Positions 11,982 to 17,185 of a stretch of DNA of 35,617 nt are shown here, piece after piece. The notes under the pieces were generated by a model. That model made no database searches. It saw only the letters and a program-made list of their open reading frames with translations, and was not told the DNA's origin. The translations under genes were made by a program, and so were the position numbers. The DNA lies in sequence record SRR31156797_2737. One strand, written 5' to 3'. Position 1 is the stretch's first letter. Each line of letters starts with the position of its first letter.

Positions 11982-12551
11982 ATGGTTTCTAGGATAACAC
12001 TTCTCTTCATTTTAGTATTAACCTTAACTGAGTGCAATGTTACTTCTGATAAGGAGAAAGCTGGTATTGAACCAGCTGAAAATGTGTATGCCAAATATCA
12101 TGTGGAGAAAATGATGCAGTATACAAATGACCTGGCATTTATTGAACCCAATAACATTGGACGCCTTTTGCAAATTACAACTTTCAATAAAAATGGACAG
12201 GAAATTAAAATTGTTCGCTTTGATAAGAGTGGCAATATTTGCTTTTCAGAAGATATAAATCCAATATTAGAGGAGGGCAAAAATAAAATAAATGAATTAG
12301 AAATATTGGATGACTCTATAACTGTAACCACGCTTAATCCGGAAGGTAAAGCCATTGATAAAATATCTCATACTTATAACAACGAGAAACAAATAATTTC
12401 CACAATCAGAACAGATAAGGATGGCGTATTAGCTGAGAAAATGACATTTGAGTATTACCCTAATGGTTTGATTAAGAGGGATATATATTGGAATGTTGAC
12501 TTGAATAAACCTGAACAAATAATTACCTATCAGTATGAATATTTCAAGTGA
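11982..12551 (+). CDS. Hypothetical exported protein, possible lipoprotein, with YD-like beta repeats
   Basis: Hydrophobic N-terminus ending LTEC, and repeats TFNKNGQ, TYNNEKQ, EYYPNGL. The 3' end overlaps the convergent gene by 8 bp. Confidence 0.7.
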   Translation: MVSRITLLFILVLTLTECNVTSDKEKAGIEPAENVYAKYHVEKMMQYTNDLAFIEPNNIGRLLQITTFNKNGQEIKIVRFDKSGNICFSEDINPILEEGKNKINELEILDDSITVTTLNPEGKAIDKISHTYNNEKQIISTIRTDKDGVLAEKMTFEYYPNGLIKRDIYWNVDLNKPEQIITYQYEYFK

Positions 12552-13638
12552 AGTTTATTGATTTGATGACACTTAAAAATTTATTATTTGCTTCATTAGA
12601 ACCAACAGTTATTCTCATTAAATATTTATCATTAATTTTTTCAGGAAGTTTTAGTGCATAAATATTATGTTTTACCAGTTCCATGTAGCATTTGTCAATA
12701 GATTCCTTACTTCTAAAAAGCAATAACAGAAAGTTTGTTTGACTCATTTTAATCTCAAAGTTTAATCTTTGGCTATGCTGTATTAATGCAGTGTAGAGTT
12801 GATTTTTGCTTTCCGTAATTTTGGATATAATCATTTTTACATCATTGAGCCATTTTTTATTTTGTAAAAGCTCTTTTAAGGCTATAGCTCCATGCTGCCC
12901 TATGATAAAGGGTAAAAGAATCTTTCTTAAATGAAGTGCTATTTCTTTATTTGTTATAAGATACCCCAGTCTCAATCCTGCAAGTCCAAAAGCTTTTGAA
13001 AAGCTTCTTATAAGGATGATGTTATTATATTTTTCTAATAACTTTTGATAATTTGAAGGGCTAAACTCAGTATATACTTCGTCAATAATAAATAAGCTAT
13101 CTGGTTGTCTTTCAGCAAGTTCTATTAATATATTTTCTTCAAGTACGGCACCTGATGGATTATTGGGTGAATCAATTATTATAATTGATGGTTTTTGGAT
13201 TTTGGGAAACAGAGATAAATCGAATTCAAAATTTTTATTTAATGGCCATTTAGTATAATTCAAGCTGTGTGTTCTGCAGTGGTATTCAAATAATGAGAAA
13301 GAAGGGTAGGGTATTACGAATTGTTTATCTTTAAAAAAATTAAAAAGCATCGTAATAATTGAACCTGCTCCTGACGAAATTATGATTTGACTAGGATGTG
13401 CATTAATGTGATTTGATATTAGTCTCTCAATTTCGCTATTGTATGCTTTAGGATAATTGTTCCACGGCATTTGTTGAAGTTTCTGGCATATTTTCTCCTT
13501 GATATCTGCTGGGATATCGAATGGCAACTCGTTTTTATCCAGAAATATAGAACTATCAGGGTAATTGTTTTCAGCCCTTCTGAAATTTATATTTTTGATT
13601 TCATCAGGGAAGAATTCATTTTCGTTAAACTGCAACAT
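12544..13638 (-). CDS. PLP-dependent class I/II aminotransferase, HisC/CobD-like (divergent)
   Basis: FLDKNELP, DSPNNPSG, IIDEVYTEF, RSFSKAFGLAGLRLGY (PLP lysine), TNFLL and MRITVG. Confidence 0.88.
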   Translation of the reverse strand: MLQFNENEFFPDEIKNINFRRAENNYPDSSIFLDKNELPFDIPADIKEKICQKLQQMPWNNYPKAYNSEIERLISNHINAHPSQIIISSGAGSIITMLFNFFKDKQFVIPYPSFSLFEYHCRTHSLNYTKWPLNKNFEFDLSLFPKIQKPSIIIIDSPNNPSGAVLEENILIELAERQPDSLFIIDEVYTEFSPSNYQKLLEKYNNIILIRSFSKAFGLAGLRLGYLITNKEIALHLRKILLPFIIGQHGAIALKELLQNKKWLNDVKMIISKITESKNQLYTALIQHSQRLNFEIKMSQTNFLLLLFRSKESIDKCYMELVKHNIYALKLPEKINDKYLMRITVGSNEANNKFLSVIKSINFT

Positions 13639-13649
13639 GTTTTTCCTTA

Positions 13650-14759
13650 TTAGGGCATATAAGCATGAATAATGGCTAATACAGTTTCCTGATCAAATGT
13701 AAATCCCAGAAAGCCTTGATCTTTTATTGCAATATCAATCTTATGGGTGTTTTGATTTTCGGGAAGTACAAATTGATATTTTAATTTAAAACCGGCCTTT
13801 TTTAATCTGTAAATCCACATTTCAGCAGGTTCATGCCTTTCGTATCTCTCCTGAAATTGCTTTCCAATTATATCATCGATCTCTCTACCAAAGAAAAGTT
13901 TTAAAGCATTTCTTTCTTGCTTATCAATATCAAGATTGTCAATAACCTTAAATACATGATAGAAATGACGGTAGCTATTGTCAAATCTTTTATGAAAGTC
14001 AGGTTCAAAATGATCAACATTTGGCTCGGTTAGCATAAATTGATTGGGTCTGAATTTTGCTAGATCCTTGAATATTTCATTTCTTTTTTCAGCGGATTGA
14101 ACATGATGCAATGTAAGCGATTCATTGATGACCAGAAATTGGTTATCAATTGGGATATATCTTTTTAATTCATCAATATTGTATTTCTCAATCAAACCGC
14201 AGAGGGGAATAAATTCAATCCAGAAGTTTGAGTTTAATGATTGGGAAACAATCAATTCTTGTGTTTTATCTAATGCATCTTGAAATGGTTCAATACCAAT
14301 AATTGTAAGTTTTTCCAGTTTTGAGTCTTTAATGTCATTCAATTTATCGAGTAAATTTGTAATTTGAATTCCACGACCAATTCCTATATCAATTAATGTA
14401 ACACTTGAATACTTTACAATTTCTTCAATCATTGTATTGTTTACAATTTGATGGCCTAGCGTTACAAATGGGAAATGCTTAATAATTAGATCGAAGAGCT
14501 TTATTTGAGGTAAATCAAATTTCTTCAGGTAGATATGTTCGTCAGCGCCTACAGGCCCAATGTGCTTTTTTAGCGCTTTAATGAACAATGTTCCTAACAT
14601 TTTATCGGACTCATCTTCAATTCCATCTAGACAATGATCAAGTAATGTTTCTATCTCAACAGATGTTTGCGGAGTGATATTGTCAGGGTAATACTGCATT
14701 ACAATTTTTAAAGTATCTCTAATCTCAGGTATTGTAAAAGTTTGCATATGATCAGTCAT
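13650..14759 (-). CDS. Bacterial GRAS-domain protein (Rossmann-fold, putative SAM-dependent methyltransferase)
   Basis: Collinear GRAS motifs: PFVTLGHQIVNNTMIEE, VTLIDIGIGRGIQ (VHIID equivalent), LTIIGIEP, LVINESLTLHH, LTEPNVDH...FHKRF...HVFKVID (PFYRE equivalent), FGREIDDIIG...ERYERHEPAEMW..RLKKAGF (SAW region). Confidence 0.9.
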   Translation of the reverse strand: MTDHMQTFTIPEIRDTLKIVMQYYPDNITPQTSVEIETLLDHCLDGIEDESDKMLGTLFIKALKKHIGPVGADEHIYLKKFDLPQIKLFDLIIKHFPFVTLGHQIVNNTMIEEIVKYSSVTLIDIGIGRGIQITNLLDKLNDIKDSKLEKLTIIGIEPFQDALDKTQELIVSQSLNSNFWIEFIPLCGLIEKYNIDELKRYIPIDNQFLVINESLTLHHVQSAEKRNEIFKDLAKFRPNQFMLTEPNVDHFEPDFHKRFDNSYRHFYHVFKVIDNLDIDKQERNALKLFFGREIDDIIGKQFQERYERHEPAEMWIYRLKKAGFKLKYQFVLPENQNTHKIDIAIKDQGFLGFTFDQETVLAIIHAYMP

Positions 14760-14764
14760 TTAAA

Positions 14765-14789
14765 GAGACTACGCGTAATGCGTAATCTC
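14765..14789 (-). promoter_or_regulatory. Intergenic RNA hairpin directly upstream of the GRAS start codon
   Basis: The minus strand reads GAGAUUACGC-auuac-GCGUAGUCUC-UUUAA-AUG: a 10-bp stem with one U-G pair that is fully paired only on the transcribed strand. Confidence 0.6.
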
Positions 14790-14812
14790 ATTATAAGCGT
14801 TAAAACTATGTT

Positions 14813-15196
14813 TTATTGTGCATCAAGCCATTGAAGTGCTTCGATTTTACTCATGAAATACTTAGTGTTAGGATCTGCAGCGCTTTTCGAGAACTTTTGA
14901 AGTGAAAGCTTTGTGAAAGCACTTTCAGGCACAACAAAAGCCATTGCGCGCATGCCATTTAATTTTAGGGTTGGCATTGTAGATGCTGCGTACTGTGCAT
15001 CTTCTGGTTTTACTACATGTTGCTTTAGCGCATCAGATAGAATGGTTTCTACAGGATTGGATTTAGTGAATTTTACTGAGGCATCAATTCCTTCGCGAAA
15101 TGCTTCAGAAGTAGCAAACCCTGACCATGTTTGAGTGAGCTGCTTTTTACCCTTGTCATAGGTAATTACAACGTTGTTGTTTTTAAAGATTTCCAT
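14813..15196 (-). CDS. STAS/SEC14 (SpoIIAA-like) small protein
   Basis: 127 aa with the pattern TWSGFATSEAFREG...ILSD...GMRAMAFVVPESAF...KYF....EALQWL, typical of Bacteroidota SpoIIAA-like proteins. Confidence 0.75.
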   Translation of the reverse strand: MEIFKNNNVVITYDKGKKQLTQTWSGFATSEAFREGIDASVKFTKSNPVETILSDALKQHVVKPEDAQYAASTMPTLKLNGMRAMAFVVPESAFTKLSLQKFSKSAADPNTKYFMSKIEALQWLDAQ

Positions 15197-15505
15197 AACT
15201 TGATAATTTTATTATTACTCTGTCCCTTGAATTGACAATTTAATATTTTTAAAATTATTTACCAATATCAGAACATTGTTATTATTAATAATCTTTGCCG
15301 ATATATTATGTAAGCTATGTAAATATTTATAATGTAATTGTTTGTATGCTTTTTGTCAATAATGTGTAATGCTTCTCTTTAGTTTTCTTGAGAACATTAA
15401 CAAAATATAGTATTATTTCATGTAGTGTGAATATATAATGTTTATTTGGTTGTTTTGCTTGATTTGATCGTTGTTTGGATGATGTATTTTAGTTAAGGCA
15501 GATTC

Positions 15506-17185
15506 TTAGTATAATTCAAAGATATAGCCTGTTTTTTCTTTAAAATTGAATTTTAAGGTCAATGAATCTTTGTTTTTTAAGCTTTCAATTCGTTCTGTTT
15601 TTTCAAAAACCGATTTTATTGATATATCACTATTAATATTAAGGCCAATATGTTTCAATGCATGATTAGGGATATGAATTTCAATATCCTTTTGGTTTTC
15701 AATGTTAAAAACCATAACACATAATAAGACTTTATCACTACTGTGTCTAAAATAAATGTAGTAATCATTTTGCAGGTGTTGATTCACCCACATTAGGTCA
15801 TAAAAACTACCGTTTTTAATCACAGCATTTTCATTTCTAAACTTTAATAAATCAATATACCAGTGTCTAAGCTTTATTGTTTGTTGATCTAAATTTTCTT
15901 CAGTAAAACGGCCAGAATCCACCCATTTTTGATATGATTCAACTTTCCAGTAATCGAATATGCTGGTTTTACCATCTATACCACTAAACCCTTCGTTATA
16001 CATTCCTTTTTCGCCAAGTTCCTGTCCAAAATAAATCATTATTGGACCGGTATGCATTGTAGCAGTTAAAACCATGGCAGGTTTTATGTTTTCGGCATTT
16101 TGGGCGAAAAACTCTGACGCTACTCGGTGCTCATCATGGTTCTCCATAAATCTTAGTAGATGGCCATTTAAACCTTCTTGCTCTTTCCAAACTTGAGAAA
16201 TCGCTCCGGCAATATTTTTTCCTTCAACAATTGATCTTACGGTATTGTAAAATTGTACTTTGTCGTAAAGCCAATCAAATTGTGCTTTTTGAATATAGTC
16301 CTTATAGTCAATTGGTTGGTAAGCCTCTGCAGTAAAAGTTATTTCAGGATATTCAGCTTTAATTTTGGGGATTACCCATTCCCAAAATTTCATGGGTACC
16401 ATATCTGCCATATCAATTCTGAATCCATCAACCATTTTATCGGCCCAAAATTTCAGTATTTCATATACTCTTTGCCATGTAGATGGGATTGGGTCAAAAT
16501 ATGCTTTTGCTCCATCTTTGAAGTCAACACCATAATTTAGTTTTACGGTTTCATACCAGTCATTAATATCGGGTTGAGGCCTGAATACATTATTACCAGT
16601 TGCTTTAGCAGGGTATTCCAAATATTGTTCTTCTATTTCAGTCTTAATTCCATCTGGAATACTAAATACTTCATATGGTATGTAATAGAAATTATTATAT
16701 GGTGTAAACCCTTTGGTTGTATCATCATATTGGCCGAGCTCTATAATATTTTCTGGTCTTTGCTCACTTCGATATTGTCTGGCTACATGATTTGGTACAA
16801 AATCAATAATAACCTTAAGATTTTGCTTGTGAAAACGATCTACCATTTCCTCAAATTCATACATCCTGTTAGGGATATTTTCTGCTAAATCAGGGGTAAC
16901 ATCAAAATAGTCTTTAATCGCATATGGTGAGCCGGCCTTACCTTTTACAATTGGAGGAAAATCTGATTGAATATTATGATCAGTATAGGCTGTAGTAGAG
17001 GCATGCCGAATAACTCCAGTAAGCCAAACGTGAGTATATCCCATGTTTTTAATTGCTGATATGGCTTTGTCGTCAAAATGATTAAACTTTGAACAACCGT
17101 TTTGTTCAATGTCTCCGTTGATAACATTTTGACCGTTTTCATTTCGAAATAACCTCGTAAAAATCTGGTATATATTTATGTTCAT
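15506..17185 (-). CDS. GH13 alpha-amylase family glycoside hydrolase (cytoplasmic)
   Basis: IYQIFTRLF, GSPYAIKDY, IIDFVPNH, and catalytic GFRIDMAD / AEAY / ENHDE. No signal peptide. Confidence 0.92.
   Translation of the reverse strand: MNINIYQIFTRLFRNENGQNVINGDIEQNGCSKFNHFDDKAISAIKNMGYTHVWLTGVIRHASTTAYTDHNIQSDFPPIVKGKAGSPYAIKDYFDVTPDLAENIPNRMYEFEEMVDRFHKQNLKVIIDFVPNHVARQYRSEQRPENIIELGQYDDTTKGFTPYNNFYYIPYEVFSIPDGIKTEIEEQYLEYPAKATGNNVFRPQPDINDWYETVKLNYGVDFKDGAKAYFDPIPSTWQRVYEILKFWADKMVDGFRIDMADMVPMKFWEWVIPKIKAEYPEITFTAEAYQPIDYKDYIQKAQFDWLYDKVQFYNTVRSIVEGKNIAGAISQVWKEQEGLNGHLLRFMENHDEHRVASEFFAQNAENIKPAMVLTATMHTGPIMIYFGQELGEKGMYNEGFSGIDGKTSIFDYWKVESYQKWVDSGRFTEENLDQQTIKLRHWYIDLLKFRNENAVIKNGSFYDLMWVNQHLQNDYYIYFRHSSDKVLLCVMVFNIENQKDIEIHIPNHALKHIGLNINSDISIKSVFEKTERIESLKNKDSLTLKFNFKEKTGYIFELY

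Follow-up and report, generated by a model that had tools for sequence, protein, structure and literature searches.

A bacterial GRAS protein encoded with a HisC-like aminotransferase and a STAS-fold protein in a conserved gene cassette

Introduction

What does a relative of the plant GRAS regulators do in a bacterium, in the company of an aminotransferase and a STAS-fold protein? The question is raised by a stretch of 35,617 nucleotides from sequence record SRR31156797_2737 (hereafter the window, meaning the whole stretch of DNA that was analysed). Three consecutive genes on its minus strand encode a 127-residue protein with the STAS/SpoIIAA fold, of the SpoIIAA-like/DUF7793 superfamily (S, positions 14813-15196), a 369-residue member of the bacterial GRAS family that is predicted to be an S-adenosylmethionine (SAM)-dependent methyltransferase (G, 13650-14759), and a 364-residue pyridoxal phosphate (PLP)-dependent aminotransferase that appears to be a paralogue derived from HisC (H, 12544-13638). 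GRAS proteins, e.g., DELLA, SCARECROW, and SHORT-ROOT, are central regulators of plant growth. For the bacterial members of the family, the proposed function is a prediction only, namely that they methylate small molecules.

An earlier reading of this sequence (hereafter the original prediction) described the three genes as a co-directional cassette that might serve in the modification of a small molecule or in signalling. The list of open reading frames (ORFs) gives identical coordinates for the three genes, with gaps of 53 and 11 bp between them, and they probably constitute one operon. The cassette is a real, conserved, and uncharacterised module. Its core is the G-H pair, and S is an accessory of some lineages. 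The explanation that we favour, with moderate confidence, is that G and H carry out a two-enzyme conversion of a small molecule by transamination and methylation, in which S participates as an accessory STAS subunit.

G and H form the core of the cassette

We analysed 31 loci of this GRAS family, i.e., the window, nine genome loci, and 21 metagenome loci. They were selected by the GRAS gene alone, and their neighbouring genes were classed by BLAST and by hidden Markov models (HMMs) made from our own alignments. H is the immediate, same-strand neighbour of G in 21 of the 27 loci whose downstream side could be judged (it was cut off or unclear in L032, L034, L046, and L050), and S adjoins G in 12 of the 31, although the close pairs L001/L002, L019/L020, and L047/L051 mean that such locus counts overstate independence somewhat. 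Five loci have G with S but without H, S standing in the place of H (L018, L019, L020, L047, and L051), and one has neither (L026). The position of S varies, and there are sometimes two copies: it is upstream of G in the window, L001, L002, L017, L021, L033, and L043, on both sides in L018, and only downstream in L019, L020, L047, and L051. The complete order S-G-H occurs in seven loci, which are spread over no fewer than four distinct lineages in the GRAS tree. In one well-supported clade, of 12 GRAS sequences, the G-H pair occurs without S, and the whole genomes G505, G666, and G522 contain a GRAS gene and no match to the S family.

G and H are mostly separated by -4 to 56 bp, with a 4-bp overlap of the ATGA type in three loci and a distance of 211 bp in one, whereas the spacing between S and G is looser (20-254 bp). 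Genes flanking the cassette differ between lineages, the loci of Salinivirgaceae excepted.

The links of the cassette also occur as single polypeptides, both between G and H and between H and S. A search for longer GRAS proteins returned two G-H fusions, P0151 (735 residues, 3 contigs, with variants of 755 residues in the same cluster) and P0152 (737 residues, 12 contigs). Both consist of a full GRAS domain followed by an aminotransferase of the H type that is 35% identical to H of the window over 355 residues. The H-S fusion P0007 (525 residues, one contig) came from a deep profile search with S. It carries the S domain at residues 395-519, after an aminotransferase that is 37% identical to H of the window versus 27% for a canonical HisC. 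A separate and weak search for longer proteins carrying an S domain gave none at E <= 1e-8, P0007 having come from the other search.

The main groups are common to the trees of G and H, and pairwise distances in the two are correlated (Spearman 0.60, with none of 2000 permutations reaching 0.60), which fits inheritance as a unit, bearing in mind that any two genes sharing genomes correlate to some degree. Chance adjacency, which we considered, was rejected in view of the locus counts and the fusions. We regard it as highly probable that the three genes are functionally linked. A gene-neighbourhood survey of bacterial GRAS genes had been proposed as a check of the original prediction, and across these loci aminotransferase and STAS-fold genes do recur as neighbours. 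The predicted three-gene module stands to the extent that its genes co-occur elsewhere and even fuse; what is conserved as a core is the G-H pair only.

One genome, G172, has an H gene split at about residue 150 over two contig ends (L021:303-800 and L028:7081-7716). The piece encoding the N-terminus ends beside an ORF fragment that by eye belongs to an IS66-type transposase. The piece encoding the C-terminus is followed by a second copy of S and then by genes that we identified by eye as mraZ and rsmH. The arrangement in this genome is likely to be S-G-H(interrupted)-S.

G retains the motifs of a methyltransferase

The assignment of G to the GRAS family, made in the original prediction, is borne out by the Pfam model PF03514, which matches residues 53-325 with 104.7 bits (cut-off 27, E 6.6e-30) and is present, among the matches listed, in all eight close relatives and in 120 homologues. 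The only other Pfam match of G is a weak one to Methyltransf_28. When the profile of G was compared with the PDB, the matches at E <= 0.01 were plant GRAS proteins only (DELLA, SCL3, RGA, SCL7, NSP2, SHR, SCR, and NSP1, with E-values from 4.7e-31 to 4.6e-10). The homology with the plant proteins (DELLA, SCL3, SCR, SHR, NSP1/2; structures 9x5i, 6kpd, 5b3h, 5hyz, and 9x2r) extends over about 300 residues and includes the conserved blocks E-x-N-H...RF...FD and R-x-E-x-H-E...W. Unlike them, G has no N-terminal regulatory region and is encoded with enzymes in a putative operon.

A further difference concerns the putative SAM-binding region. Among 25 aligned sequences, D124, G126, G128, G130, and Q132 of G are invariant, and G155 and E157 nearly so. 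These residues make up an intact motif I of the SAM type, D-x-G-x-G-x-G, and the acidic residue after strand 2, which we take to be the motifs of class I SAM methyltransferases. In the alignment, DFGLKQGMQ of DELLA faces DIGIGRGIQ of G (DIGIGxGxQ in bacteria), and TGIGP faces IGIEP (GIEP in bacteria). Judged from this alignment, G keeps the putative SAM-binding glycine loop, together with the acidic residue of G-I-E-P, whereas plant DELLA has lost the loop.

Bacterial GRAS-domain proteins were reportedly the subject of a 2012 study by Zhang, Iyer, and Aravind (Bioinformatics 28:2407). In a later article, that study is cited for the resemblance of bacterial GRAS proteins to active methylases with Rossmann-type SAM motifs (PMC4279901). 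The intact motifs of G agree with what the study is cited for, and G is a member of the same family with the same Rossmann-type motifs. One source also names a family member "SAM-dependent methyltransferase". These sequence features suggest that G is probably an active methyltransferase.

H is distinct from the histidine-pathway enzyme

H was described in the original prediction as a divergent HisC-like PLP enzyme, and this wording is apt. H matches the Pfam family Aminotran_1_2 (PF00155) with 148.6 bits (cut-off 19.7). Its best NCBIfam model is the hisC equivalog TIGR01141, on which it scores 222.4 bits, below the cut-off of 276.55. Relatives of H score 231.1, 247.1, and 245.5 bits, and the H proteins of L017, L025, and P0151 also remain below the cut-off. 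The second-best NCBIfam match of H is the threonine-phosphate decarboxylase CobD (146.9 bits, cut-off 290.55). HisC (TIGR01141; structures 1h1c, 1fg3, and 8bj1) is the closest solved and curated relative, with 93.9 bits to 1h1c. The two have the same PLP-binding residues, and K215 (the PLP lysine, in S-x-S-K), N159/N160, D186, Y189, R223, and R342 are common to H and canonical HisC. A profile of H sets the subfamily apart by a wide gap: the GRAS-linked copies score 616 and 558 bits, versus at most 193 bits for canonical HisC (the copy of G172, of which only the C-terminal half is matched, scores 191 bits).

Fifteen positions are specific to H, the clearest of which is position 329. All 17 H proteins have Leu there, and all six reliably called canonical HisC proteins, as well as that of T. 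maritima, have Arg (the canonical HisC of L054 was excluded as a longest-ORF miscall in a locus of high G+C content). The canonical Arg sits in a motif (I/V)R(D/N)RS, 13 residues before the conserved R342. We take this residue to be Arg322 of E. coli HisC, which binds phosphate, and the spacing of 13 residues to be that of R322 and R335, presumably the two phosphate-binding arginines of that enzyme. Other changes in the pocket are Y119, W131, and F244, in place of V, V, and Y in canonical HisC. From these substitutions, the pocket of H would be more aromatic, and H has likely given up histidinol phosphate in favour of a substrate that is less polar. As a further diagnostic feature we considered its N-terminal stretch, which was dropped, since the HisC of T. 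maritima has the same stretch.

The genomic position of H points the same way. In G002, a canonical hisC (337 bits) lies between hisD and hisB, on a different contig from H. In G028, hisD-hisC-hisB are at one site and H is beside the GRAS gene at another. G288 has a canonical hisC and no H, and G505 and G001 have retained H in genomes with no detectable hisD or hisB. H was never inside a his cluster in the loci seen. That the PLP enzyme might be the ordinary HisC of the genome, a possibility raised along with the original prediction, does not hold in the relatives, which have separate his clusters or none. It is thus very likely that H is not the housekeeping HisC.

A variant of the histidine connection deserves mention, in which H acts as an additional histidinol-phosphate aminotransferase and works with G on an intermediate of histidine metabolism, e.g., so as to make a methylated imidazole compound. 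HisC is, after all, the best NCBIfam match of H, with scores (222-247 bits) not far under the cut-off; the PLP core and R342 are conserved; and in L027 the HisC-type copy adjacent to the GRAS gene passes the cut-off with 290 bits. In this copy, too, the Arg is missing and position 244 is Phe. The substitutions at positions 329, 119, 131, and 244, the absence of H from his clusters, and its persistence where hisD and hisB were not found speak against the variant, which we consider quite improbable.

S has a STAS fold and resembles proposed ligand carriers

By sequence, S has only a sub-threshold match to DUF7793 (PF25056; 15.6 bits, cut-off 26). We therefore rely on an AlphaFold2 model built with an alignment of 83 sequences, whose mean predicted local distance difference test (pLDDT) is 91.1 and whose predicted template modelling (TM) score is 0.84. 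The top Foldseek match of the model is the DUF3478 protein 2q3l_A (E 3.8e-4, TM 0.63). It is followed by SpoIIAA, RsfB, RsbS, and STAS domains of SLC26 proteins, with a probability of 1.00 for matches of the STAS/SpoIIAA type, and at lower ranks by the CRAL-TRIO/Sec14 proteins CRALBP (3hx3; E 0.025, TMq 0.59), Sfh5, and kalirin. VIA-align gave Z 12.4 to RsbS 6jhk (root-mean-square deviation 2.8, 113 of 116 residues aligned), 11.5-12.2 to SpoIIAA, 11.1 to 2q3l_B, and 9.5 to 2OOK; CRAL-TRIO/Sec14 structures were absent from its best 50 rows, and Pfam CRAL_TRIO matched neither S nor the members of its family. The STAS/SEC14-like assignment of the original prediction agrees with this model, which has the STAS fold, to which that of SEC14/CRAL-TRIO proteins is probably a more distant relation. 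According to the available part of the report on DUF3478 structures, STAS-type and SEC14/CRAL-TRIO folds are placed in one SCOP fold (PMC2954212).

The sequence relationships of S lie within the SpoIIAA-like/DUF7793 superfamily, which comprises 2181 representative clusters. Among the 83 members of the S family, 23 match SpoIIAA-like (PF11964) and 21 match DUF7793 at E <= 0.01, and no further Pfam family is matched by more than one of them. Two members, P0050 (48.5 bits) and P0021 (31.8 bits), pass the Pfam gathering threshold, and the neighbours of S in the ESM Atlas carry the same two families. An hhalign comparison of the family with one PF11964 protein aligned the C-terminal motif only (probability 6.8%), and sequence and profile searches from the S family against solved structures found no match (the best was the STAS domain of prestin, E 1.7). 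Q22, R34, S54, D55, and Q59 are invariant polar residues of S, and F114, A120, and W123 are near-invariant in the family.

The S profile matches 62 of the 301 genomes sampled from the order, often in several copies. Seven copies, at 188-207 bits, are exactly those that adjoin GRAS genes in the six GRAS genomes of this sample. The copy following the split H gene of G172 scores 155 bits, and all remaining copies score at most 112 bits. These gaps in score, like those of H, mean that both partners are specialised subfamilies confined, within the 301 genomes, to those with GRAS. The tree of S copies does not separate those upstream of G from those downstream.

The strict co-occurrence of S with G within the subfamily and its invariant polar residues would also be expected if G were a protein methyltransferase and S its substrate. 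This we judge very improbable, since S is missing from 19 of the 31 G loci, the S family is entirely absent from three GRAS genomes, and the idea leaves no role for H, which is the commoner partner and is found fused to G.

A close structural parallel of S is provided by the DUF3478 proteins 2Q3L and 2OOK of Shewanella, which match it over 106-113 residues (PMC2954212 and PMC2954197). As far as the accessible text goes, these proteins contain a deep nonpolar cavity, the proposal was made that they are carriers of nonpolar ligands or interfacially activated enzymes, they have Asp or Glu in place of the phospho-serine, and Phe114, Ala120, and Trp123 are listed among their conserved residues (PMC2954212). 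The last three are the same residues, with the same numbers, as those near-invariant in the S family, and S too has acidic residues where SpoIIAA has its phospho-serine. However, S is only 14-15% identical to these proteins, with no direct sequence match, and it is tied to GRAS genes, which the Shewanella proteins are not known to be.

The same fold is shared, with Z 11-12.4 over nearly the whole protein, by SpoIIAA, RsbS, RsbV, and SiaC with SiaD (7e6g). Like S, these are small single-domain proteins, and binding of a partner protein is a feature of the known ones. Canonical STAS antagonists show the motif DSSG or DSTG, whereas in S helix 2 begins at P-E-D-A (residues 64-65 of the model, a conserved acidic position). 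The S family has no profile similarity to seven canonical antagonists (hhalign probability 0.9%), and no SpoIIAB/RsbW-type kinase or PP2C phosphatase gene is adjacent in the loci with annotated neighbours. Among STAS-fold proteins, S is most like the ligand-carrier branch, and a phospho-switch is unlikely. That S acts while bound to G or H seems reasonably probable.

Some members of the S family stand apart from GRAS genes. Two genomes have tandem arrays of at least four paralogues that are not GRAS-adjacent (G098:C91:13755-15984 and G226:C46:32437-34659). Two other non-GRAS members lie each beside a DsbH-type thioredoxin-like protein (L029:6274-7386 and L030:4898-5950), and their contexts gave no functional hint.

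Two-component systems beside G

Several loci of this GRAS family have sensory genes next to G. A histidine kinase of the Reg_prop/Y_Y_Y/LytS type is found with a LytTR regulator beside G in L025, L032, L040, L046, and L049, and a partial Reg_prop ORF is found there in L041. The Reg_prop/LytTR genes are co-directional and upstream in four loci, and downstream on the opposite strand in L040. Other sensor kinases flank L018, L021, and L043.

Plant GRAS regulators are thought to sense or bind small molecules. The cassette could by analogy be a signalling module, in which G senses or binds a small molecule, S is a partner-switching STAS protein, and the output passes through the nearby two-component systems. 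The five kinase-LytTR pairs and the further kinases would suit this role, as would the SpoIIAA/RsbS fold of S (Z 11.5-12.4) and the PAS sensor and response regulator beside a GRAS gene in Skermanella. G, however, has the invariant glycine loop of the SAM type and is found fused to an enzyme, and the window has no two-component system near the cassette. S itself fits poorly, given the missing kinase and phosphatase genes, the missing profile similarity to the DSSG-bearing antagonists, and the acidic start of helix 2, which recalls the replacement of the phospho-serine reported, in the part of the source available, for DUF3478 (PMC2954212). We hold signalling as the primary function of the cassette to be unlikely.

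A putative two-enzyme conversion of a small molecule

The conversion that we favour would proceed as follows. H would have arisen from HisC and left the histidine pathway; it would interconvert, with PLP, an amino compound and its oxo (carbonyl) form. G, as a Rossmann-fold methyltransferase with a retained SAM site, would methylate the intermediate or product of H. S would be a non-catalytic subunit attached to the enzymes, either holding a poorly soluble ligand, as proposed for DUF3478, or regulating the enzymes, as other STAS proteins do.

The closest working model, by an analogy of logic only, is the synthesis of beta-methyl amino acids by StnR/StnQ1/StnK3 and MarG/MarI/MarH. As described in the accessible part of the report, the C-methyltransferase StnQ1, the 129-residue accessory epimerase StnK3, and the PLP aminotransferase StnR form a three-gene cassette, in which StnR supplies indolepyruvate and re-aminates the methylated product (PMC4742848). 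The beta-methyltryptophan cassettes, in so far as this source covers them, resemble S-G-H in that a SAM methyltransferase is encoded together with a small protein and a PLP aminotransferase. The small protein is a cupin epimerase of about 129 residues in the one case and a STAS-fold protein in the other. By this analogy, the reaction of G might be the C-methylation of a 2-oxo acid, a suggestion that we make only tentatively.

N- or O-methylation is a serious alternative to C-methylation. The same enzymes could then perform another chemistry, in which H converts an aldehyde or ketone into an amine, or decarboxylates its substrate like CobD, and G N-methylates the amine or O-methylates a carboxylate, without any beta-methyl amino acid. 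The linkage evidence serves this version equally. Among the members of the HisC family are decarboxylases and enzymes that act on ketones lacking a carboxylate, and CobD is the second-best match of H. In L049, two aldehyde dehydrogenase ORFs, one of which is possibly a fragment, come directly after H on the same strand, with a gap of 124 bp (L049:7368-9987). In the Pfam and PDB profile searches, moreover, G showed no relationship to the known 2-oxo-acid C-methyltransferases, one of which, SgvM, binds its substrate via a zinc held by two histidines according to the available part of its description (PMC10502145). On the other hand, the retained R342, aligned with the Arg conserved in the class, fits an acid or phosphate group on the substrate, and the CobD score of H is well below the cut-off. 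We consider this version possible, if doubtful.

Several observations weigh against a conversion by G and H of the kind that we favour. Most G-H loci, and three GRAS genomes, lack S, which is therefore not essential to the chemistry. G occurs without H in five loci and alone in L026, so it does not always depend on H and can have a substrate not derived from it. No sequence relation of G to SgvM, MppJ, MrsA, GlmT, or StnQ1/MarI was seen in the Pfam and PDB profile searches. The use of SAM by G is presumed from its motifs, the role of the Arg lost in H is likewise presumed, and the separate hisC of the window's own organism is deduced from its relatives. In several loci G has sensor kinases and response regulators as neighbours, which also fits a signalling role. 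Finally, the locus counts include the close pairs mentioned above, and one distant GRAS gene, on a Skermanella plasmid, has no aminotransferase near it.

A more speculative extension would join the two functions. The G-H pair, with S as carrier in the loci that have it, might make a methylated and rather nonpolar signal derived from an amino acid, to be sensed by the Reg_prop/LytS-LytTR systems that are adjacent in several lineages. This would amount to a hormone-like or quorum-type system of Bacteroidota, built on a ligand-binding GRAS scaffold ancestral to the plant regulators of hormone response. We think it improbable.

The kinds of component at work here are already known, namely small-molecule pathways with a SAM methyltransferase and a PLP aminotransferase, and bacterial GRAS methylases. 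As far as the accessible literature goes, the novelty lies in the two partners of G, one derived from HisC and one with a STAS fold, in the fusions G-H and H-S, and in the two-component systems nearby. A full-text literature search yielded citations of the 2012 study, which may itself mention neighbourhoods, and no paper on what bacterial GRAS proteins do or on the genes around theirs. A dedicated aminotransferase and a STAS partner narrow the candidate substrates of the bacterial enzyme to amino and oxo compounds. Identification of the product would reveal the ancestral chemistry of the GRAS fold, possibly with a new methylated metabolite or signal, and would give a first function to a member of the SpoIIAA-like/DUF7793 family.

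Distribution

Among the genomes sampled, 6 of 301 from the order and 4 of 401 from the phylum have a GRAS gene scoring above the cut-off, and the 14 control genomes have none. Such rarity makes GRAS genes a sporadic accessory trait. The protein collection contains at least 284 GRAS clusters at E <= 1e-20, of which many carry the NCBI name "GRAS family protein" and many come from Bacteroidota. The carriers named by NCBI include the cultured Natronoflexus pectinivorans and Geofilum rubicundum, and a Flammeovirgaceae isolate, so that material for tests should be available among cultured Bacteroidota.

More distant GRAS genes differ in their company. In L027 (2408-4734; genome G522, 69% G+C), the GRAS gene scores 237 bits on the plant-derived Pfam model, versus about 100 bits for those of Bacteroidales. 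The HisC-type gene mentioned above lies about 15 bp upstream of it and is a second one, G522 having another hisC elsewhere; a rhamnosidase gene lies on the other side. Two Skermanella megaplasmids encode a 25%-identical "GRAS family protein". On one of these, plasmid pSM-3 of Skermanella mucosa (308 kb; L071, 6722-11423), the GRAS gene lies beside a convergent PAS sensor and response regulator, and no aminotransferase is near it in this, the one Skermanella neighbourhood that we read. The G-H pairing is thus a property of the Bacteroidota family and of L027, and not of every bacterial GRAS protein.

Genomic surroundings of the cassette

The cassette is bounded, as the original prediction had it, by unrelated genes and by an AT-rich stretch of about 300 bp upstream. 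The stretch 5' of S on the minus strand (15197-15505) measures 309 bp, has a G+C content of 23.3% versus 35.0% for the window, and is presumed to be the promoter region. It contains sigma-70-like matches. The -7 motif of Bacteroidota promoters is TAnnTTTG, and no exact match to it is present on the minus strand of this region; over the whole window there are 39 matches versus 54.6 expected, none of them useful upstream of S. The upstream regions of the window, L001, and L002 show little conservation when aligned. No terminator-like site was found on the minus strand between 12300 and 15700. Rfam gave no match at the gathering score in 146 kb from 13 loci and none at E <= 1 in the window between 12400 and 15700, and there is therefore no known riboswitch to hint at the ligand. 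The PADLOC models of anti-phage defence did not match S, G, or H at E <= 0.01, and the phage search gave no match.

Beyond the upstream region lies a gene of the GH13 alpha-amylase family, recognised by Pfam (15506-17185). On the other side of the cassette is a convergent ORF of 189 residues without a Pfam or NCBIfam match (11982-12551). Its stop-codon end and that of H overlap by 8 bp (12544-12551), and it is conserved beside H in L001 and L002. The closest relatives of the window are two metagenome-assembled genomes of Salinivirgaceae, whose loci are syntenic with it throughout.

Two other loci have further genes close to the cassette. In L025, a protein of 360 residues with a type IX secretion sorting tail (L025:4354-5436) is encoded on the same strand as H and overlaps its end by 4 bp, as if in the same operon. 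In L040, on a metagenome contig, an ORF with the Pfam Thiol-activated cytolysin domain (113 bits) lies upstream of G (L040:231-2279).

The rest of the window is a chromosome of the Bacteroidales type, with genes for an [FeFe] hydrogenase, GcvP, LpxB, SurE, and peptidases. Three genes between positions 341 and 3812, which encode a thioredoxin-like 2Fe-2S protein, a Nuo51-like flavoprotein, and the large subunit of an Fe-only hydrogenase, resemble an electron-bifurcating [FeFe] hydrogenase of the HydABC type.

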